Source: an uncultured bacterium
Lineage (GTDB): Bacteria > Auribacterota > Auribacteria > Auribacterales > Auribacteraceae
NCBI GenBank assembly: GCA_964451165.1
Contig: CAYVGJ010000005.1
Coordinates: forward strand, 85,695 to 149,694
Length of the DNA stretch: 64,000 bases
Direction: 5' to 3'
A model generated the notes under the pieces. That model had not been told where the DNA came from. It made no database searches and worked only from the letters and a program-made list of their open reading frames with translations. The translations under genes were made by a program, and so were the position numbers. This document shows positions 10,059 to 60,600 of the stretch, in pieces. Each line of letters opens with the position of its first letter. Within the stretch, counting starts at the first letter, position 1.

Positions 10059-10706
10059 TTATACACCTTTTCTATCCGGTCCCCAGATAATCTTGTGGAG
10101 CTGAACTTGTAATCGCACATGATTGAGGTTATCCTTCAACATAAGCAATGCCAACTCCTCAAAATCAACTTTTTCCCAAACCGGAGAAAAAATCAGGTTC
10201 GGGTATCCAATCAAATCATTTTTCTCAATAAAATCCTTCGCCCAGTTATAATCATTCAATTCCGCCAGAACAAATTTCAGATTATCTTTATTCTGTATAT
10301 ATTCTAAATTTTTTTTTAGGAAAGACTGTTCTTCACCGCTCCCCGGGCATTTCACATCAATAATAAATACTGCATTACGGTTATATAAGCTGATATCCTG
10401 GGATCCGTTTGTTTCAATCAGAATTTTATAATTTTCATTTATCAAAAGGTCGATCAAATAGCCTATATCAGGCTGTAATAACGGTTCGCCACCGGTAAAC
10501 TCAATTAATTCGCACCCGATTTTTTTTATCTCTTTTATAATTTCATCCGATCGCCAATATTTCCCCTCATCAAAAGCATATTTAGTATCACAATAAATAC
10601 ACCGCAGGTTACAACCGGAAAAACGCACTATCGTACAGGGATAGCCGGCATAATTGGATTCGCCTTGAATAGTGTATATGATTTCATTTATTTTGTATTT
10701 TTTCAC
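10059..10706 (-). CDS. queE: 7-carboxy-7-deazaguanine synthase (radical SAM)
   Basis: '[27 protein letters not shown]' radical-SAM CX14CX2C-type QueE motif. Immediately upstream of queC. Confidence 0.85.
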
Positions 10707-20026: not shown

Positions 20027-21118
20027 TTAACCCTCCACAATCTGATTGTATAATTTTTCAAAGCTGTTTATCATTTTCACCGAAGAAAAATATTTTTTTA
20101 TTTTTTTTCTCGCGCTGGAACCTATCCGTTCCATAAAATCTCTATCATTAATCAATCTTAATATAGAATTAGTTATCTGATCAACATTTTTAGGTTCAAC
20201 AATCAGTCCGTCTTCCTCATTTTTAATCAATTCTTTCACATCGCCGACATCTGAGGCTATACAAGCTACCCCGCAAGCCATGGCCTCCATCAGAGCTACA
20301 GGCAACCCTTCCCACAATGACGGTAAAACAAAAATATCAGCATTTTGTAGATACGATGTGATATTATCGGAATAACCTTCAAAAAATATTTTATCATCAA
20401 GACCCAGTTCTTTTGATTTATATCTCAGATAATTTTCGAGTTTTCCCTTTCCGATAAGATATAATTTGAAATCAACGCCGGATTGAGCCAACTTCGAAAT
20501 AGCATCGAATAAATATTTATGCCCTTTTTTTTCAGTAAGGCTTGCAATATTAATAATATTTAAAATTCCAATATTTTTCTCCCGAACAGGATATTTTTCC
20601 ACATCCAGTCCATTATGTATAACAACAACCTTATCTTCCTTTATACCTGCTTGTTCTACAAGATACTTTTTACCGGCAATTGAATTTGACACTATAACAG
20701 AACATAATGACGACGTCATTTTATCAATATAATTATGATACCATTTGCGCCACAAATCCACATTGCGTTGAGAAGATATTATATATTTGTATCCAATAAG
20801 TTTACCGATAATTCTCCCCAAAATATTTGAATGAAACAGATATGTATGCAGTATATCGCCTTTATTTTTGCGCAGATAATAAACCAATCTTATCAGCGCT
20901 CCAAAATCTGTTTTTGATTTGAAACAAGGAGTAAAAAAAGGTATATTGTTTTTTTCGCACATCTCGCCAAGGGGTCCCCCGGGCATAAGAGAGATAACAA
21001 CCGATTCAAATCTGTCTTTGTTTAATCCGCAGGCGGTTTGCAGTATCATCCGTTCCGTACCACCGATGGCGGAATCAGTTGTAAGATGGATTATTCTCAA
21101 TTTATTGCGATTATTCAT
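20027..21118 (-). CDS. Glycosyltransferase family 4 (GT-B)
   Basis: C-terminal 'E...EGLPVALMEAMACGVACIASDVG' EX7E motif. Probable start 'MNNRNK' overlaps the asnB stop (ATGA). Confidence 0.75.
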   Translation of the reverse strand: MNNRNKLRIIHLTTDSAIGGTERMILQTACGLNKDRFESVVISLMPGGPLGEMCEKNNIPFFTPCFKSKTDFGALIRLVYYLRKNKGDILHTYLFHSNILGRIIGKLIGYKYIISSQRNVDLWRKWYHNYIDKMTSSLCSVIVSNSIAGKKYLVEQAGIKEDKVVVIHNGLDVEKYPVREKNIGILNIINIASLTEKKGHKYLFDAISKLAQSGVDFKLYLIGKGKLENYLRYKSKELGLDDKIFFEGYSDNITSYLQNADIFVLPSLWEGLPVALMEAMACGVACIASDVGDVKELIKNEEDGLIVEPKNVDQITNSILRLINDRDFMERIGSSARKKIKKYFSSVKMINSFEKLYNQIVEG

Positions 21119-22953
21119 TGTATTCCATTCTGATTTGCCCAAACCTGCCATGTTATAAGATTCCAGATTTGGCGGGTATGATCCTGTTTTCCACTCCGAT
21201 GTTCCAGAACAAGATTACTTACGTATTTTTCATTAAGAAAATTACTCTTCGATAACTTTTCTTTTCCAAGATATTTTGTAACTATTGAGCCGGTATCGTG
21301 TTTTATCCAATCTCTTACCGGAAAAGTAAACCCATGTTTTTCCCTTTTTAAAATCTCTTGCGGCAAAAAACCTTCAAACATTTTCTTTTGCAGAACTTTT
21401 TTATTGCCACCCTCGATTTTTAAACCGATTGGAATTGAAAACACCGTTTTAATCAATTCAATGTCAAGATAAGGTACCCTCGCTTCCAAGCCATTAGCCA
21501 TACTGAGTTTATCGACTTTCATCAACAAATTTTCGGGAAGATAATTCAGCAAATCCCATAAAATCATTTTTTCTATAAAAGAATAACTTTTTTTCGGATT
21601 AAAGATTTCATTCAAATTTATTTCAGCGAAATTTTGTTTTTTTATCAATCCGCTATACTCATTTTTTAAAAATACCCTGTCCCATAAAACAATTTTTTCA
21701 ATAGAATCTATTGAAAAAAACAGGCTCGCGATTTTTTTTATCTTCCTTGAACCCGGAACTAAAGTTTCTATCAGATCAGGTGAAAAACAACCTGAATACT
21801 TAAGAAAACGCAAGTAATTATACTTGTTATAACCACAAAATAGTTCATCTGCGCCCTCACCTGAAAGTATAACTTTCACATCCTGAGACGCTTTCTCAAA
21901 TATAAGATATGTCGGGATCAAGGCTCTATCAGCCACAGGCTCATCCATATGGTATAAAACTCGCTCAATCAACTCAAGGTATCCGGACTCAACATTTAAT
22001 ACCGTATGATTCGTATTAAAATGCTGAGCAATCATTTTGCTGTATTTTTCCTCGCTGTAATCAGGATATTTGTTAAAAACCACAGAGAATGTCGGTATAT
22101 CTAAAGCGCCAAGTTCAGCTAAAGCCGCGACAATTGAGCTTGAATCGATACCTCCACTCAAAAGGACACCAAGAGGTACATCGCTCATCAACCTTTTTTT
22201 CACAGCATTAAAAAATTTATCCCTTAAATTTTCTATCATCGCTTTTTCGTTCACGATAGTTTCCGTATTGAAAAAATCCTGCAATACCCAATATGAATGG
22301 AGATGAAGTTTTCCTTTTTCTAAAACCAGTATCGATCCGGCAGGAAGTTTGAATATATTCTTATATATTGTTTTAGGAGCAGGAACATAATTCAGCGTCA
22401 TATAGAGAGCAACAGATTCCTCATCAATATTTTTGCTGACGGAAGGATGTTCAAACAAAGCTTTTATTTCCGACCCAAAAACAAAACCATTTTGGTCATG
22501 GAAATAATAAAGAGGTTTTTTTCCCATTCTGTCCCGAGCGAGAATAAGTTGATTTAACTTTTTGTTCCATAGACATATGGCAAACATCCCATCAAGCCGG
22601 TTAACAAAATCTAATCCATACTGTTCATACAAATGAATGATTACTTCTGAATCACAATTTGATTCAAACACATGTCCTTTTTTTATTAATTCTCCGCGCA
22701 ACTCAATATAATTATAAATTTCTCCATTGAAAACGAGCACAAGTGACTTATTTTCATTAAAAATAGGTTGGTGCCCGCCCTGGATGTCTATTATACTCAA
22801 TCTCCTGAAACCAAGCTCAACATAATCATCCGAATAAGAACCTTCATCATCCGGGCCCCGATGTTTAATCGAATCAATCATCTTTCCCAGGATTTCATTA
22901 TCTTCCAAAGGGTTTCTATTTTTATATTTATAATATCCGGCTATTCCACACAT
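21115..22953 (-). CDS. asnB: Asparagine synthase (glutamine-hydrolysing) family amidotransferase
   Basis: N-terminal 'MCGIAGY' Ntn glutaminase and 'SGGIDSS' PP-loop. 612 aa. Embedded in a glycosyltransferase operon, as with WbpS-like enzymes. Confidence 0.85.
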   Translation of the reverse strand: MCGIAGYYKYKNRNPLEDNEILGKMIDSIKHRGPDDEGSYSDDYVELGFRRLSIIDIQGGHQPIFNENKSLVLVFNGEIYNYIELRGELIKKGHVFESNCDSEVIIHLYEQYGLDFVNRLDGMFAICLWNKKLNQLILARDRMGKKPLYYFHDQNGFVFGSEIKALFEHPSVSKNIDEESVALYMTLNYVPAPKTIYKNIFKLPAGSILVLEKGKLHLHSYWVLQDFFNTETIVNEKAMIENLRDKFFNAVKKRLMSDVPLGVLLSGGIDSSSIVAALAELGALDIPTFSVVFNKYPDYSEEKYSKMIAQHFNTNHTVLNVESGYLELIERVLYHMDEPVADRALIPTYLIFEKASQDVKVILSGEGADELFCGYNKYNYLRFLKYSGCFSPDLIETLVPGSRKIKKIASLFFSIDSIEKIVLWDRVFLKNEYSGLIKKQNFAEINLNEIFNPKKSYSFIEKMILWDLLNYLPENLLMKVDKLSMANGLEARVPYLDIELIKTVFSIPIGLKIEGGNKKVLQKKMFEGFLPQEILKREKHGFTFPVRDWIKHDTGSIVTKYLGKEKLSKSNFLNEKYVSNLVLEHRSGKQDHTRQIWNLITWQVWANQNGIQ

Positions 22954-22955
22954 TA

Positions 22956-24077
22956 TTATTGAGCCACTTTCTTATAAATCTCTAATGTTTTTCTTGCGGT
23001 ATCTTTCCATGAAAAATTTTTTATATGTTCCAATCCGGATTTTATCAATTTATCCGCAAGCTCTTTATCATTCAGTAAACATAATATTTTTTCAGCTATA
23101 TCTTCCGCATTTTTGGGATCCGCAAACAAAGCGTTTCCGCCGGTTATCTCGTGCCCCCATTCCATATCGCTTACAACAACCGGAACACCGCACGACATCG
23201 CTTCCAGAACAGTCAATCCGAACCCCTCATATAACGAAGGTAATACAAACACCGATGCGTTGTTGTATAATTCTATCAGTTTTCTTTTATCCGTAAAACC
23301 GGTAAAAAAGACAAACTCTTTTATTTTATCATCAGATATTATATCCGACTCCGTCAGATATGACATTCCCTTAATTTGTTTATATTCCCCAACAATTACA
23401 AGTTTAACATCCATATTCCGCTTGTTTCTGATTATATTTATCGCTTCTACAAGCTTTATTATATTCTTTCTCCGGTCAATTCCTCCAACATAGAGAACAA
23501 AACCTTTTCCGATCCCCAATTCAACGTTATTTCTTATTTCAGGATCAATCCTGAAGTCCTCGTCATATGAAAGTGGAATATGGTTCACTTTGTCATATTT
23601 TAAGCAAAAATAGCGGTCTATATCTTTTTTTGAGGATAATGAATCGGTAATAATTATTCTGGTGTTGATTCTTATTAAAAAATATATGAATCTGATCAGA
23701 AAAAGCATCCAACTCGAAACGAGTTTATTCTCTTTACATAAAACCGGGCTTATATCATGCAAAGTTACTACCGTTTTAACAAACGGAAACAACCAGACAG
23801 AATTATCCGGAAAATGAAACACATCTATTTTATCTCTAATAACATGAAACGGGAGCTGAAAATTTTTCCATATAAAATTATTTAGTTTTCGGGCAATAAT
23901 TCTCTGAGTTATTTTGCTATTTGATTCAATGTTATCAATCTGTTTATCCGTATATAGATATATATGGAAATCCTCATCAATTTCAATCAGCGATTCAAGA
24001 AGTTGGCGAAGGTATATCTCAAACCCTCTTCTATTTTTATTTAGAATGATTCCTGAAATTCCTATATTAATTCCCAT
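22956..24077 (-). CDS. Glycosyltransferase family 4 (GT-B)
   Basis: 'LPSLYEGFGLTVLEAMSCGVPVVVSD' motif. 373 aa. Confidence 0.7.
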   Translation of the reverse strand: MGINIGISGIILNKNRRGFEIYLRQLLESLIEIDEDFHIYLYTDKQIDNIESNSKITQRIIARKLNNFIWKNFQLPFHVIRDKIDVFHFPDNSVWLFPFVKTVVTLHDISPVLCKENKLVSSWMLFLIRFIYFLIRINTRIIITDSLSSKKDIDRYFCLKYDKVNHIPLSYDEDFRIDPEIRNNVELGIGKGFVLYVGGIDRRKNIIKLVEAINIIRNKRNMDVKLVIVGEYKQIKGMSYLTESDIISDDKIKEFVFFTGFTDKRKLIELYNNASVFVLPSLYEGFGLTVLEAMSCGVPVVVSDMEWGHEITGGNALFADPKNAEDIAEKILCLLNDKELADKLIKSGLEHIKNFSWKDTARKTLEIYKKVAQ

Positions 24078-25268
24078 TTAGTTTTCTTGATTCAGGTTTA
24101 AAATTCGACGATAAATTTTTTCCACATTTTCACCATAACTTTGTGCTGAAAAAACATCTCTTGCCCGCCCCCAGGCCGCCTCAGATAAACGCCGACGTAA
24201 CATCGGTTCTTCAGACATCAGAACAATTGATTCCGCAAGTTTCTGGTAATCATCAGGTTTAAACAGAACTCCTGTTTTCCCGTCTATGATAATTTCCGGT
24301 ATTGCACCAGAATTCGAACCGATTACAGGAATTCCTTCGGACATAGCTTCTATTATAACTCTGCCGAACGGTTCGGATATTGAAGTAATCGCCAAAACAT
24401 CGAGATCTTTCATTAACTCTGCGGAATCTGTCCGGTACCCTAAGAATTTTACTTGTTTTTCCAGATGCCATCGTTTAAGCAGATCGTACAACCATTCTTT
24501 ATACTGTATATCCACTTGCATCTGTTTTGGATTCGACGTAACACAATCGCCTATAATCACTCCATAGATATTGTTTCGCGTTTTTGAGACAAGTTTAAAC
24601 GCTTCAAGAAACGTTTCCATTCTTTTGAAAGCTGTAATTCGTCCCAACATACCCACAATAAAACAGGGATTTTTTATATCCATCGCCCGTATCAGCTTAT
24701 CTGATTTATAAGATACTCTTTGAAATGGTTTAACGCTCACACCATTATAAACAACATTTATTTTTTCAGGATTGCGCTTAAACGATCGATAAAACGGTTT
24801 TGCGACCTCATTGGATATACATATAACGGCATCTACCATTTTATAAACTAATCCTCCCGTCAGACCAAACTTGCTATTATAATTTCTCACATGCCATACT
24901 ACCGGACGCCCGGAAAAAGTAGCCAACGCGATACAATGAAAAACCGATGTGGTTTTATTCGCATGTATAATTTTTATTTTATTCTTTTTTACCCATCTCG
25001 CTTTAAAAAAACCGAATAAAAATAAGTTCAATATCCAGTACAAAAACTTAAATGGATTATATGAACGATAAATTATCGGCATCCAACATACTTTTACACT
25101 TGCTCCCAAAGATATCAGTTCATCATGAAATATTCCCTTATTCGGCAAAACGCAGAATACTTTACAACCTGTTTGTATAAAATACTTTACAAGTTCATAC
25201 ATTGATTTTTCGCCACCACCTGGCTCGCCACCATGATCTGAAATAAAAAGAATTCGTTGATCCGTCAT
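24078..25268 (-). CDS. Glycosyltransferase family 4 (GT-B)
   Basis: 'SISEPFGRVIIEAMSEGIPVIGS' motif. 396 aa. Confidence 0.75.
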   Translation of the reverse strand: MTDQRILFISDHGGEPGGGEKSMYELVKYFIQTGCKVFCVLPNKGIFHDELISLGASVKVCWMPIIYRSYNPFKFLYWILNLFLFGFFKARWVKKNKIKIIHANKTTSVFHCIALATFSGRPVVWHVRNYNSKFGLTGGLVYKMVDAVICISNEVAKPFYRSFKRNPEKINVVYNGVSVKPFQRVSYKSDKLIRAMDIKNPCFIVGMLGRITAFKRMETFLEAFKLVSKTRNNIYGVIIGDCVTSNPKQMQVDIQYKEWLYDLLKRWHLEKQVKFLGYRTDSAELMKDLDVLAITSISEPFGRVIIEAMSEGIPVIGSNSGAIPEIIIDGKTGVLFKPDDYQKLAESIVLMSEEPMLRRRLSEAAWGRARDVFSAQSYGENVEKIYRRILNLNQEN

Positions 25269-35783: not shown

Positions 35784-36557
35784 TTAAGCTTGAAGAGCTT
35801 TCTTGATTTCAAGCATATCTTTCCAGACTTCGCGTTTCATGTTCGGGCTTCTTAAAAGAAAAGAAGGATGATAAGTCGGTATTAAAATACATCCTCTATA
35901 TTCAAGCCGTTTGCCACGCACAGAAGAAATGTTTTTATCGCTTCCAAGCAAAGTTTTTGCGGCAAAAGCACCTAATGCACAAATTACTTTCGGCTGAATT
36001 ATATCAATCTGCCTGAATAGATATGGACTGCAACTCTCAATTTCATCCGGTAAGGGATTCCTATTATCCGGCGGCCTGCATTTAAGAACATTGGCTATAT
36101 ATACCTGTGATCTCTTTAACCCTATCGACTCAATAATTTTTGTTAATAACTGACCTGCTTTTCCGACAAATGGAATACCCTGAATATCTTCATCCCGTCC
36201 CGGAGCTTCACCAACAAACAGAAGATCTGCATCGGGGTTTCCTATACCAAATACGATATGCGTTCTATTATCCGCAAGCTGTAAACATCGCCTGCATTTC
36301 CCATCACCATTATTGATCTGCGCATAAAGAGAATCGAGCAATTCTTGTTTATTCTCGACTGAAAGTTTTGTTTCAGAATCAAGTTTTGTTTCCCGATCGA
36401 TTTGTTTCATTTCATCATCGAAATTAGAATCTGAATCGCCTAAAAACATTTGTGATTCATGCAAAACAGCAGGCAAAATATATGGTCTACCGTTCGATTT
36501 TGCCTGATTGAAATAAAGTTTCAGTCTATTAATTAAATCCGATACAGTTTCACCCAT
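35784..36557 (-). CDS. Uracil-DNA glycosylase, family 4-like
   Basis: 'GEAPGRDEDIQGIPFVGKAG' and 'HPSFLLR' family-4 motifs, plus upstream 'CRRC' cysteines. About 75 aa N-terminal extension. Confidence 0.7.
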   Translation of the reverse strand: MGETVSDLINRLKLYFNQAKSNGRPYILPAVLHESQMFLGDSDSNFDDEMKQIDRETKLDSETKLSVENKQELLDSLYAQINNGDGKCRRCLQLADNRTHIVFGIGNPDADLLFVGEAPGRDEDIQGIPFVGKAGQLLTKIIESIGLKRSQVYIANVLKCRPPDNRNPLPDEIESCSPYLFRQIDIIQPKVICALGAFAAKTLLGSDKNISSVRGKRLEYRGCILIPTYHPSFLLRSPNMKREVWKDMLEIKKALQA

Positions 36558-37515
36558 TTTGATTCTTGTACCAGTTCACAGTTAGCTGAAGACCTTCCTT
36601 CATCATAATTTCCGGTGAAAAGTTCAGGATTTCTTTCGCTTTTTGTATGCCGGCAAGAGAATGTTTTATATCACCCGCTCTAACAGGAAGATATGTAGGT
36701 TTTACGTTTTTCCCTAATATCTCATTTATCATATCGACAAGAGAATTCAGCGAAATACTGTCGTTACATGCTATATTAACTACCTCACCAAAATATCCAT
36801 CAAGTTTGGATTCCGCGGCAAGAATATTTGCCTTAACCACATTAATCACATAAGTAAAATCCCTGGTTTGTTCACCATCACCAAATATAGTTGGGTTTTG
36901 ATCGTTCAGAATCATTTTGATAAATTTTGGAATTACTGCCGCATATTCGGATGCCGGATCCTGATTAGGTCCGAATACGTTGAAGTAACGCAAGGAAATC
37001 GTCTCCAAACCGTATAACTGAAAAAATACCTTACTGTAATATTCTCCGGTCAACTTGTGTATCCCATAAGGAGATATCGGATTCGGAATCATCGTTTCTA
37101 CTTTCGGCATTACCGGTGAATCACCATAAATTGATGAAGATGACGTAAAAACAACTCTTTTGACCTTGGCGTCTCTTGCGGCAATCAATAAATTCAGTGT
37201 TCCGTTTATGTTTACATCATTTGTTAAATCAGGCAATAACACCGATCTTGGAACAGAAGGTATCGCGGCAAGATGGAGTATATAATCAATTCCATCTACC
37301 GCTTTTTTCAACGTTTTTATATTTCTTATATCGCCTTGAATAAACTCGATTTTATCCATCAGTGTATTTAGGTTAATCATTCTGCCTGAAGACAAATCGT
37401 CAATCACTCTTACTTTGTCTAATCCCCTGTTAACCAAAAACCTGACGATATTCGAACCGATAAATCCAGCGCCGCCGGTAACAAGATAGTTTGCCATTAA
37501 GTCATGCCTCCTCAA
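36550..37515 (-). CDS. NAD-dependent epimerase/dehydratase (UDP-sugar 4-epimerase-like SDR)
   Basis: 'VTGGAGFIGS' and catalytic 'YGIHK' (YxxxK). Confidence 0.75.
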   Translation of the reverse strand: MRRHDLMANYLVTGGAGFIGSNIVRFLVNRGLDKVRVIDDLSSGRMINLNTLMDKIEFIQGDIRNIKTLKKAVDGIDYILHLAAIPSVPRSVLLPDLTNDVNINGTLNLLIAARDAKVKRVVFTSSSSIYGDSPVMPKVETMIPNPISPYGIHKLTGEYYSKVFFQLYGLETISLRYFNVFGPNQDPASEYAAVIPKFIKMILNDQNPTIFGDGEQTRDFTYVINVVKANILAAESKLDGYFGEVVNIACNDSISLNSLVDMINEILGKNVKPTYLPVRAGDIKHSLAGIQKAKEILNFSPEIMMKEGLQLTVNWYKNQNG

Positions 37516-38912
37516 AGTAATATTACGTTTTGTTTTTCCAGGTTTATTTTTTCAGTAACGTTTTTTGCGTCAAGAATTAAAGATGCATTCTTTACAATCA
37601 GCTCGAAATCGATATTAGAATGATCCATAAGTATTACCACGATATCAACCCAGCTTATCATTTCCGAAGTCAACTCTATCGAGCTCAATGGAAATCCTTT
37701 ATTGACAAGTTCAATATCAGGCACAAAATTATCGTGGTAATAAATATTTGCGCCTTTATCCAGCAAAATGTTTATTATTTCTACCGATTGAGCCTCATTC
37801 CATTCACTTATATCTCTTTTATTAGCTACTCCCACAATCAATATATTTGAGCCGTTCACACATTTTTTTCGTGAATTCAACGAATCAGTTATTCTGTTTA
37901 TTATATAATCACGAGTTATAAGAGTGTTTATTTCGATTGAAAAATCGATTATGTCGTTTTTTAATTCGGTAAAATCTTTTTTCCACGTTAGTGAAAACGG
38001 TTCGGTATTATATTTTGAATAAGACCCGTAACCAGGATTTGGAAGAAACCTGAAATACTCGAACGGATTTGATTTAACTGCTTTTATTACTTCCCAAACA
38101 TTTACGCCAAGAGTGTTGCACATAATCATAAACTGGTTTACTAACGCAAGGTTGACCCATTTATGTGAGTTTTCCAGATATTTTACCATCTCAGCTGTAG
38201 TGGTTGATGATACTTCCACTATTTGTTTCAAAATTTGAGAAAACAACACTTGAGCAAGAATTTTACTCTCTGATGTCATACCGGAAATAACACGGGGAAT
38301 AAGAGATAATTTGACATTTTTATTTCCCGGATCAATCCGTTCAGGCGCGACAGATAAATAATAATCCCGGTTTATTTTGCGGTTCTGCTCTTCAAATAAT
38401 GGGAAAACTACCTCTGCGCAAGTACCTGGAGCCATCGCGTTATCCATAATAATAAGCTGAGTTTTCTTCATGCCACTTATTATATTTTCTATTACCGCCA
38501 TAAGAAAAGACACATCTTTATTCTTCGGATAAGTAGTCGGTATCTGATCGCTTATTATTACGACATCATTTTCTGAAAGAATATTTAAATCATACGCGGC
38601 AAAGAATTTATCATTGGATATTACTTTTTTCAAATCATCATCAGTAACATTTTCTATATATGATTCTCCGGAATTGAGTTTTTTTACTTTTTTCCTGTCA
38701 AATTCGATTCCCGTCACCGTATATCCAGCGTTGGCAAAAGCGACAGCAAGCTGCAATCCGGAATATCCCAACCCAACAATTCCAATTGATAAATTTTTTG
38801 ATTCGATCAATCTTTTAAATTTATCGAATTCAACAACTGTAGAAACCGGTTCAGACTCTTTGCGCAGATTTATAAATAACTTATCGTCCGATACTTTTAT
38901 ATATGAATCCAT
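37512..38912 (-). CDS. UDP-sugar dehydrogenase-family paralog (WecC/WbpA/TviB-like fold), apparently lacking the catalytic Cys
   Basis: Rossmann 'GIVGLGYSG' and a C-terminal UDP-binding domain 'IVGVANKRDISEW'. The active-site segment reads 'PNPGYGSYSKYN' where the family has 'PGxGVGGHCI'. Confidence 0.6.
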   Translation of the reverse strand: MDSYIKVSDDKLFINLRKESEPVSTVVEFDKFKRLIESKNLSIGIVGLGYSGLQLAVAFANAGYTVTGIEFDRKKVKKLNSGESYIENVTDDDLKKVISNDKFFAAYDLNILSENDVVIISDQIPTTYPKNKDVSFLMAVIENIISGMKKTQLIIMDNAMAPGTCAEVVFPLFEEQNRKINRDYYLSVAPERIDPGNKNVKLSLIPRVISGMTSESKILAQVLFSQILKQIVEVSSTTTAEMVKYLENSHKWVNLALVNQFMIMCNTLGVNVWEVIKAVKSNPFEYFRFLPNPGYGSYSKYNTEPFSLTWKKDFTELKNDIIDFSIEINTLITRDYIINRITDSLNSRKKCVNGSNILIVGVANKRDISEWNEAQSVEIINILLDKGANIYYHDNFVPDIELVNKGFPLSSIELTSEMISWVDIVVILMDHSNIDFELIVKNASLILDAKNVTEKINLEKQNVILL

Positions 38913-40173
38913 GTTCTACCATTTTAGCGGGTGAATACAAGTTTCTTCCGTCGATTATTATAGGATGAACCATTAAATTTCTGACTTTTTCCATATCCAT
39001 ATCGGCAAACTCTTGCCATTCCGTTACAAGAATAATTGCTTCTGCGTCTTTCGCGACCTCGTACGGGCTTGAGCAATATTGAACATTTTCAATAATTTTC
39101 TTTGCGTTTTCCATTGCCTGAGGGTCATACACTTTTATAACAGCGCCTTCTTTTTGCAGAGTTTTTATTATCTCAATCGCCGGAGCGTTTCGCATATCAT
39201 CAGTATTAGGTTTAAAGGCTAATCCAAGTATACCTATTACTTTATCTTTAATTACCCATAAAGTCTCTTCGATCTTTTTTATAAAATGCTGAACCTGCTC
39301 TCTATTAATGTCCTCGACAACCTTTAAAATTCTAAAATCATATCCAAGCTCTTCCGCTATTCTTATGAACGCCGATACATCTTTCGGAAAACATGAACCA
39401 CCGTATCCAATACCAGCATTGAGAAAACTTCTTCCTATTCTTTTATCCAACCCCATTCCTAATGCTACTTCTTCAACATTCGCGCCTGATTTTTCGCAAA
39501 TATTAGCAATTGAATTAATAAATGATATTTTTGTAGCGAGAAACGCGTTTGATGCATGTTTTATAAGTTCAGCGCTTTTTATATCCGTAACAATAACCGG
39601 GGCGTTGAACGGCGCGTATATCTCGCGCATAATTTTTTCCGCTCTCTTGTTATCAACACCTATCACTATACGATCCATTTTCAGAGTATCTTCAACAGCG
39701 GATCCTTCACGTAAAAATTCAGGATTCGATACGACATCAAAATCAATTTTTTTCTTGTTATATCGTTGAATCGTTTCAGCAACCTTTTCACCCGTTTTTA
39801 CCGGAACCGTACTTTTATCGACTATAACCTTATATGATGTCATTAATGAAGCTATTTCCCTGGCGACTTTCTCCACATATGTAAGATCGGCTTGTCCGTT
39901 TGATTTTGGCGGTGTATTTACGCATACAAATATCACGGAACTTTCTTCCACAGCTTCTTTTATATCAGATGAAAAACGCAGTCTTCCCTCTTCAATGTTT
40001 TTTCTCATTAATTCTTCAAGCCCCGGTTCATATATCGGCACGATATTCTGTTTGAGCTTTTTTAATTTTTCTTCATCATTGTCAATGCACAATACATTAT
40101 GGCCTACTTCAGATAGACAAACACCCGTCACAAGACCGACATAACCAGTGCCAATAATGGAAATCTTCATCAA
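38881..40173 (-). CDS. ugd: UDP-glucose 6-dehydrogenase
   Basis: 'IGTGYVGLV', catalytic 'GYGGSCFPKDV' and 'GLAFKPNTDDMRNAP'. 430 aa. Confidence 0.85.
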   Translation of the reverse strand: MMKISIIGTGYVGLVTGVCLSEVGHNVLCIDNDEEKLKKLKQNIVPIYEPGLEELMRKNIEEGRLRFSSDIKEAVEESSVIFVCVNTPPKSNGQADLTYVEKVAREIASLMTSYKVIVDKSTVPVKTGEKVAETIQRYNKKKIDFDVVSNPEFLREGSAVEDTLKMDRIVIGVDNKRAEKIMREIYAPFNAPVIVTDIKSAELIKHASNAFLATKISFINSIANICEKSGANVEEVALGMGLDKRIGRSFLNAGIGYGGSCFPKDVSAFIRIAEELGYDFRILKVVEDINREQVQHFIKKIEETLWVIKDKVIGILGLAFKPNTDDMRNAPAIEIIKTLQKEGAVIKVYDPQAMENAKKIIENVQYCSSPYEVAKDAEAIILVTEWQEFADMDMEKVRNLMVHPIIIDGRNLYSPAKMVEHGFIYKSIGR

Positions 40174-40191: not shown

Positions 40192-42831
40192 TCAATTGCC
40201 CACTTTTAATTTTATATCTGGAAAATCTTTTAAATAAAACATAACATAAAATGTTCTGTCTACTTCCTTTTCAACCCTTACATATCTCCTGTCACTATAT
40301 GAGAACGCCAGTTCCCACTCATGAAGGTCTTTTATTATCGTATAACGCTGGTAGTCCAAAATACTTCCATCGCTGGATGGTTTGTTGAAATCTATTATAT
40401 GTGATATTTGTATTCTCCAATCCTGATTTATCCTGTAATTGAATGTATGAGATAGCTGAGTACTTCCACCTATATAGAACGATGTATACACATCCCAGCT
40501 GACTTTATCAGTATTGAAGAAACTTAATCCCCATGTAACTTCCGATATCTGCCGTTTATATGGATCGTATCGTGTAATCAAACTTGTGGCAAGCCAATCA
40601 AATGGCTCAAATTTAAGATCAAACAAAAGATCGGAAAGATATTTATCTTTTGTACTGCTAAGCAATGGGGATCCCTGCACAATATTTCGTAGAAAAAAGA
40701 AATCAAGAGCGCTCAAATTTCGATAACTCGGATTCAAATGGCCTATCGGGTAAGTAGTTCTATCTGCTCCTGACGGAAAGAAATCAAACATCACCGCAAA
40801 ATCAATTAAATCGGTTGTGACTTCCTCTATTCCTTTATGCCTGATTTTCTGATCCCGATCAACAGTTTTGGGTGATATCTCGACTCTTTCTTTCCATCTA
40901 TTTGTCTGCAACAAATTTCTAAAATTGAAAGAGAATACTGCATCATCGTTATAACCATCTATCAAATCGAATTGATGGATTTTATCCGGATCTACATTCG
41001 TTTTTAAAATTTTAAAGTTTATCGAAGGTTCAAAAACATGCCTGATTTGATGAATATTCCAATTTTTGCTTTCAACAGGGAAAATTTTAGATACCTTCAT
41101 ATCTGTGTTTACACCAAATTCACCGACAAGTCTCGGTTCTTTTCTTCCACTGCGAAAATCCGAATAAGTTACTGTTCTCCCAGCAACATAAGGATCCACA
41201 TTAAGGCAATCCCAGAAAAACATCGGAATAGAAGCTTTCGCAAACGATGTCAACCTTGTAGAATCAAAATCACGGTTTTCATCGTCGAATAAGAAATTTA
41301 GCCGAGCCGCCCGGGAATCTGTTTCCACAAAAAGAGGTGTATCAAATAATTTTGCGTTTTTTGTGGTAAAACTGAATTCAGGTAACCTTTCAAGAACATC
41401 AAAAAAGCTATTAAACCGTGGTGATATATATGCCTCGAATTGATATTTTTCTGTTGCTTTTGTCAAATCGACGAAGTTTACTCGCTGTATCTGCTCTTCA
41501 AACTCTCTTTGGAAGAAGTCATCAATAATCTGTTTATCACTTTGGAAATTCAATTCGCCCAATAGCCTTGTATCTTCAGAAATTCTCTGCGCATGCTCAA
41601 GGGTAACGCGATACCTGTTCTTCGATCTTCTTTTTATACTCTGAACCTCATCCGGTGATTCTTCATATTTTTCAAATGCTTTATCGCGCAAAGCATAACT
41701 TTTAAACATACCTTTGATTTTTTCCTGAAAATTATACTGCGCATCAATACCGGGAGCCACACCGCGTTTTGACATCATGTCAAGAATAAGCTGTATCTTC
41801 AGGTTTTCAGAACGATATACCTGAAGCGAATTCAAAAGATAAGCGCCCCATTTTTTTGAGTATCCGGGAACCATTGAAAATGGTACATCTTTATCCAATA
41901 ATGGATAATACCAATATGGAACCCAGAATACGGGAACTTTCCCTATGGAAAAAACTATATTTTTCAGTATAATTTTATCCTGAGGATATATATCAACAGT
42001 CTTCGCTTTTATCCTGTAATCCGGTAGACGGTAATCGGATGTAGTTATATAACCGTTTTTTATGTGATACTCGGCCTTTTTCTCCGGTTTGTCAACATAT
42101 TCTCCATACAGGAAAAACGGTTTGAAGTGCCCTTTAGTATTCTCAAATTTCCCTTTTTCCAAAGCAAAATTGTAATACGCGTGTTCAGCAGTATATAACC
42201 GATCACCTTGATAAATACGCACATTACCATCGGCATAAGCGTCTTTTGTCATAAGATTAACAGTTATTTTATCAGCCGATAACTGAACCCCTTTAAAATT
42301 AATAACAACATTTCCGGTTCCTTTTACAAGCTGTTCTTCCTTAACATACTCAACATTATCCGCATTCACCTCGATAGGAAGGTCTTCCTTAATTTTCTGT
42401 ATATTATCCGCGTTGTCAGGTTCAGCAGGCTCGGCATTCTCAGGTTCAACTTGTGATTCTTTCACAGCAGGAACACCTTCTATTGTTTTGATTTCCTCTA
42501 TAGTTCCCGGTTTGAGTTCTTGCTGCTGAATAAAATTTTGTTCATTGTCAATTTCGGATTTTTTACCGTCATTAAAATCAACATCAGTAGTTTCTTCTAT
42601 AGGCAACCCTCTTTTTATTTTGTTGATAAATTGCTCATTATCAAATTCATGTTGATTTTTTACATTGAATTCAGCATTATCCTTTTTTTCTAAAATCGAG
42701 CCTTCATTATTAAATTCAACCGGATTTGAATTCTGGGCAAACAAATTTTGATTTATCAAAAATAGACAAATTAGAAATGATACTTTGAATTTTGAAAATT
42801 CAAAATTTTTAACCACAGCAATACCTTTCAT
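40192..42831 (-). CDS. lptD: LPS-assembly outer-membrane protein LptD/OstA-like
   Basis: Signal peptide; N-terminal OstA/LptA-type jellyroll ('ADNVEY...GNVVI...ADGNVRIYQGDRLYTAEHAYYNF'); a large C-terminal region with beta-barrel-like alternating hydrophobicity and a terminal aromatic residue. 879 aa. Confidence 0.6.
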   Translation of the reverse strand: MKGIAVVKNFEFSKFKVSFLICLFLINQNLFAQNSNPVEFNNEGSILEKKDNAEFNVKNQHEFDNEQFINKIKRGLPIEETTDVDFNDGKKSEIDNEQNFIQQQELKPGTIEEIKTIEGVPAVKESQVEPENAEPAEPDNADNIQKIKEDLPIEVNADNVEYVKEEQLVKGTGNVVINFKGVQLSADKITVNLMTKDAYADGNVRIYQGDRLYTAEHAYYNFALEKGKFENTKGHFKPFFLYGEYVDKPEKKAEYHIKNGYITTSDYRLPDYRIKAKTVDIYPQDKIILKNIVFSIGKVPVFWVPYWYYPLLDKDVPFSMVPGYSKKWGAYLLNSLQVYRSENLKIQLILDMMSKRGVAPGIDAQYNFQEKIKGMFKSYALRDKAFEKYEESPDEVQSIKRRSKNRYRVTLEHAQRISEDTRLLGELNFQSDKQIIDDFFQREFEEQIQRVNFVDLTKATEKYQFEAYISPRFNSFFDVLERLPEFSFTTKNAKLFDTPLFVETDSRAARLNFLFDDENRDFDSTRLTSFAKASIPMFFWDCLNVDPYVAGRTVTYSDFRSGRKEPRLVGEFGVNTDMKVSKIFPVESKNWNIHQIRHVFEPSINFKILKTNVDPDKIHQFDLIDGYNDDAVFSFNFRNLLQTNRWKERVEISPKTVDRDQKIRHKGIEEVTTDLIDFAVMFDFFPSGADRTTYPIGHLNPSYRNLSALDFFFLRNIVQGSPLLSSTKDKYLSDLLFDLKFEPFDWLATSLITRYDPYKRQISEVTWGLSFFNTDKVSWDVYTSFYIGGSTQLSHTFNYRINQDWRIQISHIIDFNKPSSDGSILDYQRYTIIKDLHEWELAFSYSDRRYVRVEKEVDRTFYVMFYLKDFPDIKLKVGN

Positions 42832-42939: not shown

Positions 42940-43884
42940 TTATTTTTTCAGAAGCCAGTTGGCAAACTTTTCTATTCCTTCTTTAATACTTGTTTTCGGA
43001 TCGTATCCTAAAACCGACCTGGATTTTGTGATATCAGCGTATGTAATAGGAACATCTCCTTGTTGCATGGGCAATCTTTTTAAAACAGCTTTTTTCCCGA
43101 GTGTTACCTCGAGCAATTCAACCAGTTCCGCCAGAGAAGTGGTTTTTGAATTTCCAAGATTAAATACATCATATTCAAAATTCTTCTCTATAGCTTTTAG
43201 TATACCGCCGACAATATCGTCAACATAAGTATAATCTCTTCTCGAAGAACCATCGCCAAAAAATGGAAGCGGTTCGCCCTTAAGTATTTTCATAGCGAAA
43301 TTATGTATAGCCATCTCAGGGCGTTGACGCGGGCCGTATACGGTAAAAAATCGCAATATTGTAACGTTGAGTTTATATAAATAATGATAAACATGACACG
43401 ACATTTCAGCGCCAATTTTTGAAGCTGAATACGGAGAAATCGGTTTATCTATTCTGTCATCCTCAGAAAACGGAACTTTGCTGTTAACACCATAAACCGA
43501 TGATGTGGAACCGAAAATAAATTGTTTTACCTTGTTTTCTTTAGCCAGATCAAGAAGGTGTGTTGTGCCTATCATATTTACTCTGTTATATAAATCGGGT
43601 TCAGCTATTGACGGCCTAACCCCGGCTCGCGCGGCAAGATGAACAACAAGCTCGAAATTTTCTTTCCGGAATATTTCCTTCATTTTCTTATAATCCTGAA
43701 TATCACATTCATTCACTTTGAAACTGTTATAATCCAGAAATTCCCTGATATTTTCCCTCTTTATCCTGGGATCATAATAATCATTGAAATCATCCAGACA
43801 ACAAATATCGTGATTTGCCTTAATCAGCGATTGAATTAAATTCGAACCTATAAAACCTGCGCCTCCGGTAACAAGTATTTTCAC
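42940..43884 (-). CDS. NAD-dependent epimerase/dehydratase (UDP-glucuronate 4-epimerase / WcaG-like SDR)
   Basis: 'VTGGAGFIGS' and 'YSASK' (YxxxK). Confidence 0.75.
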   Translation of the reverse strand: MKILVTGGAGFIGSNLIQSLIKANHDICCLDDFNDYYDPRIKRENIREFLDYNSFKVNECDIQDYKKMKEIFRKENFELVVHLAARAGVRPSIAEPDLYNRVNMIGTTHLLDLAKENKVKQFIFGSTSSVYGVNSKVPFSEDDRIDKPISPYSASKIGAEMSCHVYHYLYKLNVTILRFFTVYGPRQRPEMAIHNFAMKILKGEPLPFFGDGSSRRDYTYVDDIVGGILKAIEKNFEYDVFNLGNSKTTSLAELVELLEVTLGKKAVLKRLPMQQGDVPITYADITKSRSVLGYDPKTSIKEGIEKFANWLLKK

Positions 43885-57695: not shown

Positions 57696-60600
57696 TCACG
57701 CGAATTCTTCTGCCATTTTCATGCGTTCATATTCACGCAAATACGCACTGCTTATTTTCTGTTTCGGCGACTGAAGCACAAGATTAACGAGTGATTGGCT
57801 GAATAAATCATCGAATAGAATATTTCCAATATTTTCGCCAAGAAGTGATTTTAATGCACCAGAGAATTCGCTTTCAAAGATTTTCAGGTTAAGATCGGGA
57901 GTCAAATTGATTTTATTATCGAGAATATAAGCTGTAATTGATTTATAAAGTATATCTTTTAATACATCGTCTTTCTGGTTAAAACCATACTGGGTTCTTA
58001 TGAAATTCAACAAATCTTCAACAGAACCGAATTTACTGAATTCGGTTTCCGATTGTTTTATCTGATCATATAACTTATTCACTTCAGGATTTTTGGTTGT
58101 ATCCTGATTATTAAACGCGAGAATTTTTGTTTTTGCCGGTAAATTTGTATACCCATTTATTGAGGCTTGTACAAATAGGTTTAATGATCCTACAAAAGTT
58201 TCAGCCATAGATTCTCCGTTCTCGTTATCGATAGAGAACCCCGGATTGACTTCCATTATCTGAACACCCAGCTGACGGGCTATTTCCCGTGCCTGCTGGT
58301 TTCCTGATTCGGTTATTAATTTGAGATTCTGGTTATTCACCGAATAGTTGTTCTGAACAAGCTGGATTAGATCCTGCATGGTTTTATTGCCATCGCCAAG
58401 GTCTTTTGCGAAAACATCCACCTGTAATTCCGTTATCCTGAGCGCAGACAACTGATCGAGAACCGCTTCAGAAGTATAATTTTCAGATACTATAACAAAT
58501 TTTACGTCTTTACCTTTATCTTTAACCATCTGTTCAATAAACTGAATTGTTTCTTTCAACATAAAGTTAGACTCATTGACAGAAATTTTTCCGTTTTGCG
58601 CAAGAGCATCAAAATTAATTACGAAAACGTAACGGTTATCGGAATTCTTCTCACTTACAAGCGGATTTATGTTACTGATAAGAAAACTTCTGATTTCATT
58701 TTTGACTTTATCGTCGGTTTTCGCTAAATCAAAAATGTTTTCTCCAAGATTATCCTTCAGCACCTGAACAAGCATCACTCTCCTGTCGGTATTGGTTTCC
58801 TGAATCTCAACCTGCGACATATAAGGCATTTTCTTTGATACAAACGAACTTATTTCCGGTTTTAACTGCGGCAATAGATTTTTCAGATCTCCACTCAAAG
58901 GCAATCCAAGATATAAATTGGCTATTATTGAGACTATCGCATTCCTTATTTCCACGGTAGATTTATCTTTCATACTTTTATATAATTCGGGGAACACCGC
59001 TTCCTGAGCGGAACTCAATTCGATAGCCTGGTCAAACAAAAGCCCTATATAACCCTTTATTTTTTCATCAAACACCCTGTTGCGCAAATCGGGTGAAGAA
59101 AGATTCTCAAGCTGTGTTAATAACCTGTCAACCACAGGATCCGCAATAAGTTTATTCTGGACAACATCGATACCTATATTCGCATCAACAGAAGCTAAAA
59201 TAGATTTTAACTTTGTCGCTGAATCCTGGTCAAGAGATGGGATAATCCGTTCAATAAATTTATCATCGAATTTAGGTGTTTTATACTCAACAACCGATGA
59301 AGATATATTTTGTGGGGATGCCGCGCCTAAAACATCAGTAATATAACTGTTAATCTTTGTCTTTAATGTGGCAACCGCCGCAAGATAATTCGCACTGTCC
59401 TTATGACCGGAAGAAAGATATGTATTGTTAACAATATCCGATATAAATTTCATAAAGATATCTACTCTGCCTTTGTTGCTTTCAACGGCTTTAAAGAATT
59501 TAGCGCCGAGTTCGTCATCGGATACTTCAGTAACACCGGATATGTTACTCAGACATATTCTCATTATTTCTTTTTCATATTTGTTTACATCCTTCATAAT
59601 CAATTCAATATTATTCGGTTTGTCCTGTGTTACGGCAAACGATTTATTCGCTTCATCTATTGTGAGTTTATCAAACAAATCAACCAGTTTCGTAAGCCCT
59701 GACTTTATCTGTTCCAGTGAAGTTATGGATGGACGTTGTATCTGATTCATCTCATCGCTTATCTTTTTCAATCCATTGGAAATATCCGCAAACGCGTCTT
59801 TAATCTGAGAATTATTTGCGATTATTTCAGCATTATCCACAGCCGATTCGCCGGCAATTATCATCCGGTACATATCGTTCACCGAAGCCAGCATTATGCG
59901 TAGAGCGTTAACAGCCTGGCTATTTTTCCGTAAATCTTCGTTATTTAAAAATTCTTGCACAGCAAAATCATTCAATATTCTTTTCAATATGAAATTGTAA
60001 CCGTACAGATCAACTTTCCGACCATTAACGGAACTATTATTTTTTAAAGAATTAAAAAATTCCTCAACAGTTACAGCAGAAACAGGATTACTCGTCTTAA
60101 ACGCTTTAAACCCGGCTGTTTCAATTAATTTATTGGAAATATCATTGAAATAATCATTCACACTGCCAATATCTTTCAAATTAAATACCAAATCAATCGC
60201 CGCCATTTCATCATCTGGAAGTTGAAACATCGCTTTTATTGATTCATTGGTTTTTAGGCTGTTAATGAATACCTCAGGATTGTCCACTCCAGCACTTTCA
60301 AGCATATTTTTAACCATAGCAAACTTCTGCGCAGACTGGCTGATATCAACTTCCGGAACAACATAAACATTACCGTTCGAATCGATTTTTAAATTCAAAT
60401 TCAGTTTGGCAACCAGACTTTTCAACACTTCAAGCTGAATATTCGAAAATTGCCCAATTAAAACAGGTTGTGTTTCAAATATCGTATCGGTAATTACGTT
60501 TCGCTGTTCCTGTAATCCTATGGCACTATTGTTAAGCCAGTCGGTCAAATTCTGTTTACTTTTTGCGATTTGCTTCAAGACCAGCTTCATGGTTTTCATT

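Follow-up and report, generated by a model that had tools for sequence, protein, structure and literature searches.

A clade-invariant serine at the catalytic-cysteine position of a nucleotide-sugar dehydrogenase homologue from Candidatus Auribacterota

The catalytic cysteine counts as a hallmark of the UDP-glucose/GDP-mannose dehydrogenases, and Cys-to-Ser mutants of these enzymes are the classic acyl-enzyme trap. What, then, is a protein of this family that carries a serine at this position by nature? The question is raised by a 466-amino-acid (aa) protein encoded in a 64,000-nucleotide (nt) stretch of contig CAYVGJ010000005.1 from an uncultured member of the Auribacterota (hereafter the window; guanine-plus-cytosine content 35.8%), which we call SerDH, for Ser-for-Cys nucleotide-sugar dehydrogenase homologue. 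Full-text literature searches returned no report of a natural Cys-less family member. Our results establish that SerDH belongs to the family, that a serine occupies its nucleophile position, and that the protein is conserved, under purifying selection and kept in a syntenic position. Very probably, SerDH is a selectively maintained, lineage-specific derivative of the WbpA/TviB-like UDP-N-acetylhexosamine (UDP-HexNAc) 6-dehydrogenase branch, which is found in one branch of Candidatus Auribacterota only and sits in an ancestral slot between ugd and a TviC-like epimerase gene within a cell-envelope cluster.

37512..38912, minus strand: SerDH gene, 466 aa (open reading frame list, three UDPG_MGDP_dh domains, TIGR03026)

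SerDH has the three-domain architecture of the UDP-glucose/GDP-mannose dehydrogenases, with every Pfam domain above its curated cutoff: PF03721 (1.1e-31, 110.3 bits, cutoff 27), PF00984 (6.6e-15, 55.4 bits, cutoff 25.4) and PF03720 (1.4e-11, 45.1 bits, cutoff 30). The NCBIfam subfamily model TIGR03026 matches with 272 bits against a cutoff of 189.8, and the best phmmer match in the PDB is the UDP-ManNAc dehydrogenase 4r16 (2e-38). The AlphaFold2 (AF2) model of SerDH has a mean predicted local distance difference test (pLDDT) score of 88.8, and its top Foldseek matches are 4r16, 3ojo, 4xr9, 3gg2 and human UDP-glucose dehydrogenase (hUGDH), all with a probability of 1.00 and template-modelling (TM) scores of 0.68-0.78; the matched structures are UDP-ManNAc, TDP-glucose and UDP-glucose dehydrogenases. 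SerDH is thus a genuine three-domain member of the family, with a match far beyond chance. The preliminary description had made the same assignment from the N-terminal Rossmann motif and a C-terminal 'GVANKRDISEW' stretch (SerDH residues 361-371); the Pfam, TIGR03026, phmmer and AF2 results bear it out and exclude a spurious match.

At the level of function-specific models, SerDH falls below the equivalog cutoffs for TviB (NF011729, 116.2 of 592 bits) and for the WecC type (NF008286 and NF040825, 138.1 of 459 and 174.3 of 750, the second being the score for archaeal UDP-ManNAc dehydrogenase). Its canonical positional counterpart in Candidatus Ancaeobacter aquaticus, P0015, likewise falls below the TviB and WecC cutoffs, yet it scores far higher (230.5, 259.7 and 266.3 bits). 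SerDH should not be filed as a UDP-GlcNAc 6-dehydrogenase from sequence alone.

To place SerDH among its relatives, a search covering 5.8 billion proteins was used. It gave a clade of 14 sequences (P0001-P0014, ~465 aa) that are 54-100% identical to SerDH and sharply separated from all others: the next identities are 42% or lower, where proteins with a canonical 'GGHC' loop begin, which are named UDP-N-acetyl-D-glucosamine dehydrogenase in their sources. The catalytic loop of this clade is described by two features.

38016..38018, minus strand: Ser299 codon TCA, at the position of the family's catalytic Cys (phmmer, MAFFT, hmmalign; invariant in the 14 clade members)
37995..38012, minus strand: Y301-N-T-E304-P-F306, replacing canonical I-P-x-D-P (Tyr301, Glu304 and Phe306 clade-invariant; type II sites I301Y and D304E)

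Positions 38016..38045 (minus strand) code for L290-S299, 'LPNPGYGSYS', and the 12-residue stretch quoted in the preliminary description, PNPGYGSYSKYN, covers 38007..38042 (minus strand) of the SerDH gene. Ser299 falls in the Cys column when SerDH is aligned with four solved structures by phmmer, with canonical homologues and the neighbouring Ugd by MAFFT, and with the family hidden Markov model by hmmalign. SerDH therefore does not have the catalytic Cys nucleophile of the family (hUGDH Cys276; Cys260 of the S. pyogenes enzyme, SpUGDH), and no catalytic-loop Cys is present in SerDH under phmmer, MAFFT, hmmalign or hhalign, nor in any clade member under hmmalign. The earlier suggestion that the cysteine is missing is thus confirmed by all four alignments, with no Cys from elsewhere aligned there. 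That description read the site as 'G-S-Y-S-K-Y'; it was right that no Cys is present, but the position holds a clade-invariant Ser rather than noise.

The clade loop reads G-x-x-S299-x-Y301-x-x-E304-x-F306, one residue longer than the canonical G-G-H-C-I-P-x-D-P. Ser299, Tyr301, Glu304 and Phe306 are invariant across all 14 sequences, at 54-77% identity, and across loci their codons vary only synonymously (TCA/TCG/TCC, TAT/TAC, GAA/GAG and TTT/TTC, respectively). The Ser codons are all TCN, a single mutational step from Cys (TGY to TCY). The water-holding Asp that lies four residues past the Cys in canonical enzymes (hUGDH Asp280) is absent; the invariant Glu304 lies five past Ser299, and position 303 is variable in the clade (Thr in the window).

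How coherent is this clade, and is it under selection? When 1.84 billion representatives of 50% clusters were searched with a profile, the whole clade came out as one cluster (834 bits), the next match scored 408 bits, and no intermediates between the Ser clade and canonical enzymes were found. Among species-representative genomes, the clade occurs in five assemblies, two of which are taxonomically labelled ('Candidatus Auribacterota bacterium' and 'Candidatus Auribacter fodinae SURF_26'), and all taxonomically traceable clade members come from Candidatus Auribacterota. The identical SerDH protein (P0001) is encoded on 8 metagenomic contigs from independent samples, and eight further full-length clade genes from other loci are intact, with no internal stop.

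Between the window and other clade genomes, the nonsynonymous distance (dN) of SerDH is 0.33-0.38, on a par with PriA (0.31-0.33) and LptD (0.33-0.35), compared with 0.39-0.40 for ROK, 0.15-0.16 for Ugd, 0.25-0.28 for the downstream epimerase and 0.46-0.64 for UDG. The synonymous distance (dS) is saturated in nearly all clade pairs, so the dN/dS ratio (omega) was taken from the closest pair, the window and locus L024, where SerDH has a dN of 0.144 and a near-saturated dS of ~1.7. Omega is 0.083 for SerDH, 0.068 for PriA, 0.050 for LptD, 0.116 for ROK, 0.051 for the downstream epimerase and 0.180 for UDG; for Ugd it is not estimable. SerDH is under purifying selection typical of housekeeping genes.

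The position of the gene is conserved as well. The order metG, tatD, ROK kinase, short-chain dehydrogenase/reductase (SDR), lptD-like, ugd, SerDH, TviC-like SDR, udg, priA is kept in every sufficiently long clade locus. The following features flank SerDH or lie at its start.

38881..40173, minus strand: Ugd, canonical UDP-glucose 6-dehydrogenase with GGSCFPKD (TuaD model 587 bits, TIGR03026 495 bits)
36550..37497, minus strand: SDR epimerase, best NCBIfam match TviC (UDP-GlcNAcA 4-epimerase; 252 bits, below the cutoff of 760)
38881..38912, minus strand: the SerDH start overlaps the 3' end of ugd by 32 nt (MDS[FY]IK[VA]S.D over GFIYKS[IV]GR*)
38820..38912, minus strand: clade-specific N-terminal extension, approximately residues 1-31 (MAFFT comparison; a low-confidence beta-hairpin in the AF2 model)

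The preliminary description had called SerDH a paralog next to ugd. It correctly noted the GGSCFPKD of the adjacent Ugd, but SerDH is only ~21% identical to that protein (MAFFT), and in Ca. Ancaeobacter aquaticus, another member of the Auribacterota, the slot between ugd and the TviC-like SDR gene holds P0015, which has a canonical GGHC loop and is 39% identical to SerDH. The flanking genes of the Ser clade and Ancaeobacter are 31-65% identical. SerDH is therefore no duplicate of ugd but takes the position that a canonical UDP-HexNAc dehydrogenase-like gene has in Ancaeobacter. In neighbour-joining (NJ) trees with 100 bootstraps, the clade is monophyletic in 100 of 100, and P0015 was never seen as its specific sister among 56 canonical sequences under midpoint rooting. 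The clade falls outside all 56 canonical sequences under this rooting because of its long branch, and, as the tree does not give P0015 as sister, the orthology of SerDH and P0015 rests on synteny only; the canonical gene may instead have been displaced in situ by a divergent paralogue.

The 32-nt overlap with ugd is found in every clade locus and is absent in Ancaeobacter (locus L005); the ~30-residue extension and the overlap arose together with the Ser loop. An unusual N-terminal extension had been noted before as ~40 aa long: it is real and conserved, but its length relative to canonical homologues is ~30 aa. The first 10 SerDH codons are dual-coded with the last 10 ugd codons in a different frame, so the invariance of the N-terminal decapeptide cannot be taken as evidence of selection acting only on that peptide, since the Ugd C-terminus encoded by the same nucleotides is itself conserved.

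We then compared the remaining active-site residues between 13 clade members and 56 canonical sequences, and subsequently across 269 family members.

38757..38774, minus strand: G47-L-G-Y-S-G52, intact Rossmann GxGxxG with the clade-specific change V51S (MAFFT and family alignments)
38181..38183, minus strand: Lys244, counterpart of the catalytic Lys (hUGDH Lys220), kept (invariant)
38442..38444, minus strand: Asp157, counterpart of the deacylation base (hUGDH Glu161; D in 11 and E in 2 clade members)
38535..38549, minus strand: D122-Q-I-P-T126, replacing canonical V-P-T-P-L (MAFFT and hmmalign)
37797..37802, minus strand: W371-N372, replacing canonical x-R, with loss of the NAD-phosphate Arg counterpart (MAFFT and hmmalign)

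The ligand-binding motifs, the general base and the deacylation acid persist. The N-terminal NAD-binding GxGxxG motif (G47-G52) is conserved in the clade, the catalytic Lys is present as Lys244, and the acidic deacylation base is present as Asp157, a position at which the adjacent canonical Ugd has Asp too. Also kept in the clade are the acidic residue ending beta2, Glu247, Asn254 and Asn259, and, at the UDP site, Lys365, Asp448 and Arg/Lys450; the sugar-wrapping loop of SerDH keeps its Pro/Gly scaffold. The fixed clade changes are V51S, V122D, P123Q, K207R, A279V, K282N, M287F, C299S, I301Y and D304E. Among them, the type II changes V51S, V122D, P123Q, K282N, C299S, I301Y and D304E cluster in active-site elements, and they are fixed rather than random. 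L126, K128 and D88 are invariant in canonical proteins and variable in the clade. Arg260 of hUGDH reaches the sugar site of the partner protomer (PMC3184952), and K282 lies in the corresponding loop of SerDH; the equivalence is approximate, K282 being the subfamily's basic residue one position before an invariant Pro.

Can a serine support the chemistry of this family? Human UGDH uses Lys220 as the base in alcohol oxidation and to stabilise the oxyanion, Asp280 to hold the water that deprotonates Cys276, and Glu161 as the base in thioester hydrolysis (PMC3265891). C276A and D280A enzymes are nearly inactive already at the first step, whereas T131S and N224A enzymes are within 10-fold of wild type (PMC3265891). 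S. pyogenes C260S and human C276S UGDH complete both oxidations and accumulate the Ser-O-acyl ester of UDP-glucuronate, which is hydrolysed very slowly (PMC3265891, PMC6367545). The formation of this ester in the C260S and C276S enzymes means that Ser does not preclude covalent catalysis, and that deacylation blocks turnover unless the site is adapted. The earlier statement that the thiohemiacetal and thioester steps would be precluded once the thiol is lost was thus too strong, given that these mutants carry out both oxidations through a Ser ester.

The canonical Cys, the water-holding Asp and the water-holding Thr form one functional unit, and in SerDH they have changed together into a fixed new set of Ser299, Glu304 and a hydrophobic residue at 124, joined by the new invariant Tyr301. 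The most economical reading is that the nucleophile-activation system has been rebuilt and that SerDH is an active dehydrogenase using Ser299 activated by Glu304, to which we would give a probability of roughly 40%. We infer ligand binding, the catalytic roles of Ser299, Glu304 and Tyr301, and the substrate. In the proposed model, SerDH would bind NAD+ and a UDP-HexNAc and oxidise C6, and Lys244 would, as in canonical enzymes, serve as the base and stabilise the oxyanion. The aldehyde would be trapped by Ser299 in place of Cys, first as a hemiacetal and subsequently as an O-acyl (ester) enzyme. A serine is a harder nucleophile of higher pKa and would need a direct base such as Glu304, whose carboxylate may substitute for the canonical arrangement of an Asp plus a Thr-held water; Tyr301 may assist Glu304, and Ile124 would occupy the former water site. 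Asp157, the hUGDH Glu161 counterpart, would activate the deacylation water. The product, UDP-GlcNAcA or a close analogue, would pass to the downstream epimerase and on to envelope glycan synthesis. In favour of this explanation count the invariant loop residues, the purifying selection, the retained catalytic and binding residues, the precedent of the Ser ester in UGDH mutants, the canonical GGHC enzyme in the corresponding Ancaeobacter slot and the presence of the TviC-like epimerase in all clade loci. Stated in its narrower form, as a natural four-electron dehydrogenase with a Ser299-Glu304(-Tyr301) nucleophile that turns over through O-acyl-serine and would thereby have overcome the deacylation block of all engineered Cys-to-Ser mutants, or whose ester is resolved by a non-water nucleophile, the proposal is a tentative one that we would not yet call probable.

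Several observations weigh against a working serine nucleophile. The hhalign profile-profile alignment places a one-residue insertion on Ser299 and puts the variable residue 300 (K/Q/E/R/H) under the Cys. The loop at residues 301-320 has a pLDDT of 55 in the AF2 model of SerDH, compared with 79-90 in the canonical control P0015, in whose model a helix begins at the Asp of the catalytic loop. The TIGR03026 score falls from 432 bits to 272 bits for SerDH, the branch to SerDH is 0.81 and that to P0015 0.35 by a three-point distance estimate, and SerDH evolves ~2.2-fold faster than Ugd. Within the active site, the water-holding Thr (hUGDH Thr131; SerDH position 124) has become Ile, Met or Val in the clade. 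The counterpart of hUGDH Arg346, which contacts the NAD phosphate (PMC3265891) and lies seven residues past Lys339, is N372 in SerDH (N/S/H in the clade; +7 from Lys365), at a column that is Arg in 217 of the 242 sequences with a residue there (269 surveyed, 27 gapped). Residues S158, T159, T160 and Y161 of the ESTTY motif after the acid are invariant in canonical enzymes and variable in the clade; G297, H298 and Y307 are likewise relaxed, and Asn248 (hUGDH Asn224) varies in 4 of the 14 clade members. Finally, the engineered Cys-to-Ser enzymes remain stuck as the ester, and efficient turnover by SerDH would need new deacylation capacity.

The main alternative, though one we would still hold to be short of probable, is that SerDH is a ligand-binding pseudoenzyme, which has lost turnover but still binds UDP-sugar and/or NAD, with its fold and dimer interface kept, and acts within the envelope sugar-nucleotide pathway as a subunit for regulation, sensing or scaffolding. 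Its partner might be Ugd, to which it is translationally coupled through the 32-nt overlap, or the downstream epimerase. Essential residues (Cys, Asp, Thr and Arg) have been changed under purifying selection (omega ~0.08), as expected of such a protein: the Cys was lost along with the NAD-phosphate Arg counterpart (now N372), Thr124 and K282, and the ESTTY and GGH residues were relaxed. Of the ~9 other lineages that lost the Cys independently, several show decay at positions 124, 282 and 372 as well, and in some of these the Rossmann motif is degenerate or the catalytic Lys (Lys244) is missing, a parallel that counts against the serine-nucleophile proposal as well. The persistently higher rate relative to Ugd would fit fewer constrained sites, the ugd overlap and the N-terminal extension arose in the Ser clade only, and the engineered C-to-S enzymes do not turn over. 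A dead subunit could still signal, given that hUGDH residues 260-280, with Cys276, pass occupancy between protomers (PMC3184952). Against a loss of catalysis, the Rossmann motif, Lys244, Asp157, Lys365 and Arg/Lys450 are all kept. No more conservative replacements were available than Cys to Ser and Asp to Glu, and these have stayed invariant despite synonymous change, whereas those of other Cys-less lineages are heterogeneous (R, A, G, T, D). Moreover, no second canonical WbpA/TviB-like gene is present within the 64-kb window.

It is unlikely that SerDH is an active enzyme with a different chemical outcome. Such an enzyme could (a) stop after a two-electron oxidation and release a UDP-6-aldehydo-HexNAc, (b) perform a non-covalent four-electron oxidation via the hydrated aldehyde, with Ser, Tyr and Glu merely positioning water, or (c) form an O-acyl-Ser that is resolved by a non-water nucleophile, such as an amine that would give a uronamide. 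The catalytic loop is remodelled while binding residues are retained, and the change of the sugar-contacting K282 to an invariant Asn points to a sugar pocket that has been altered. Release of UDP-Glc-6-amide in vivo has been reported for Cys260Ala UGDH (PMC6367545). However, no aminotransferase or other aldehyde-consuming gene adjoins SerDH in any clade locus, the DegT gene of Ancaeobacter being absent, and an AsnB/WbpS-like amidotransferase 15 kb away could explain any uronamide. The preliminary description had offered either a pseudoenzyme or altered chemistry such as a two-electron oxidation only; this pair of options broadly holds up, but the two-electron form has become less likely, as Cys-to-Ala mutants are almost inactive already at the first step and are not clean two-electron enzymes.

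A substitute cysteine that restores canonical chemistry is very improbable. Cys351 is clade-invariant and yet variable (mostly Ser) in canonical relatives, and Cys265 is conserved in the family; but a Cys from elsewhere at the catalytic position is ruled out by all four alignment methods, none of which puts any Cys into the loop. Cys265 is no less conserved among canonical enzymes, in which the catalytic Cys is also present, and in the model it lies within the long central helix 237-268. Cys351 is modelled in the linker before the C-terminal-domain strand 356-360, probably at the sheet edge opposite the UDP site. Nothing beyond the unusual residue speaks for an artefact of sequencing or assembly or for a pseudogene in decay, and both are refuted for practical purposes by the identical protein on 8 contigs, fourteen distinct intact relatives, key codons that change only synonymously and an omega of ~0.08.

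How does SerDH compare with known systems? Its closest relatives are the WbpA/WbpO/TviB-type UDP-GlcNAc 6-dehydrogenases (35-42% identity), with which it shares the three-domain fold, the pairing with a TviC-like SDR epimerase, the Rossmann motif, the catalytic Lys, an acid at position 157, the UDP-binding Lys and Arg, and the operon slot seen in Ancaeobacter. Unlike them, it has Ser for Cys, Glu for Asp with a one-residue shift, Ile for Thr, Asn for the NAD-phosphate Arg, Asn for K282, a relaxed ESTTY motif and a ~30-aa N-terminal extension that overlaps ugd. The best solved-structure matches are the UDP-ManNAc dehydrogenases of P. horikoshii (4r16) and S. aureus (Cap5O, 3ojo/3ojl), with 2e-38 and 4.7e-35 and TM scores of 0.71-0.78; these have GGHC and the Asp, and are only 24-26% identical to SerDH. 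The engineered C260S and C276S UGDHs share with SerDH a Ser at the nucleophile position. In these mutants, however, a single change was made in an otherwise canonical site and the enzyme stalls at the ester, whereas the Ser of SerDH is natural and invariant and is accompanied by fixed changes at the base, the water site and an adjacent Tyr. SerDH most closely resembles the laboratory Cys-to-Ser mutants, as a naturally occurring version that has been adapted further.

If it is active, SerDH would show how an active site adapts in nature to an oxygen nucleophile, which would be useful for understanding the mechanism and for engineering oxidation-resistant UGDH. If it is inactive, it would be a clean bacterial sugar-nucleotide pseudoenzyme, possibly one that regulates the supply of envelope precursors. 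In both cases, SerDH is a well-defined, easily testable enzymological lead rather than a new system. There is also an annotation problem, as public databases give the Ser clade and ~9 other Cys-less lineages the name 'UDP-N-acetyl-D-glucosamine dehydrogenase' or 'nucleotide sugar dehydrogenase'.

Regarding these other lineages, ~9 of the ~150 nearest 50%-cluster representatives, within the WbpA/TviB-like subfamily, also lack the catalytic Cys: P0145, P0184, P0187, P0193, P0211, P0213, P0221, P0239 and P0241, with loops that read GGHR, GGAA, GGLS, GGYG, GGQT, GGHS, GGRD and GGPY. Several recur in independent samples; the cluster of P0145 ('GGHR') has 16 members, and P0187 ('GGLS') comes from Elusimicrobiota metagenome-assembled genomes. 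Most also lack R372, and some lack K282, T124, the Rossmann motif or Lys244. P0221 ('GGHS') has a loop that is canonical apart from Ser in place of Cys, and its Glu161-equivalent position holds a Cys. In these lineages the Cys was lost independently, most have also lost the Rossmann motif, Lys244 or the acid, and the replacements differ from one to another; the Auribacterota clade is the largest of the Cys-less lineages and, P0221 aside, the least degenerate. Among canonical relatives, P0122, P0125, P0132 and ~30 other matches of 590-940 aa carry inteins (Intein_splicing and LAGLIDADG) just past query residues 296-314, in the region of the catalytic loop.

Two further members of the conserved cluster lie upstream of SerDH.

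40192..42831, minus strand: LptD-like outer-membrane beta-barrel protein, 879 aa, conserved upstream neighbour (weak CT351/LptD matches)
42940..43884, minus strand: second SDR epimerase/dehydratase of the conserved cluster

The 879-aa protein matches the NCBIfam chlamydial CT351 family with 63 bits and LptD with 48 bits, and has no Pfam match at E<=1e-5; its orthologues in relatives give faint to clear LptD Pfam matches. It is a very divergent LptD-like protein within the sugar-nucleotide cluster. Downstream of SerDH, the TviC-like epimerase is kept in all clade loci. Its mechanically called open reading frame (ORF) spans 36550..37515 (minus strand, 321 aa) and begins with a TTG at 37515 that overlaps the SerDH stop, whereas gene calls in relatives place the start 15 nt past the SerDH-clade stop (315 aa). 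The start is thus probably the ATG at 37497 (315 aa, 'MANYLVTGGAG') and not the TTG at 37515.

In Ancaeobacter, two additional proteins, a DegT-family aminotransferase and a third SDR, are encoded at positions 10250..12321 of L005, between udg and the gene for the TviC-like epimerase. The best NCBIfam match of the DegT protein is PseC (253 bits), followed by WecE-like and ArnB models, all below cutoff. Both genes are missing from all Ser-clade loci, and the pathway downstream of the dehydrogenase therefore differs between the two lineages.

Elsewhere in the window, ~15 kb from the dehydrogenase pair, the region 20027..25268 (minus strand) contains an AsnB/WbpS-like glutamine amidotransferase (21115..22953) and three flanking GT4 glycosyltransferases, an arrangement typical of uronamide-sugar surface-polysaccharide clusters. 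A 2098-aa ORF lies at 57696..63992 (minus strand), close to the window edge.

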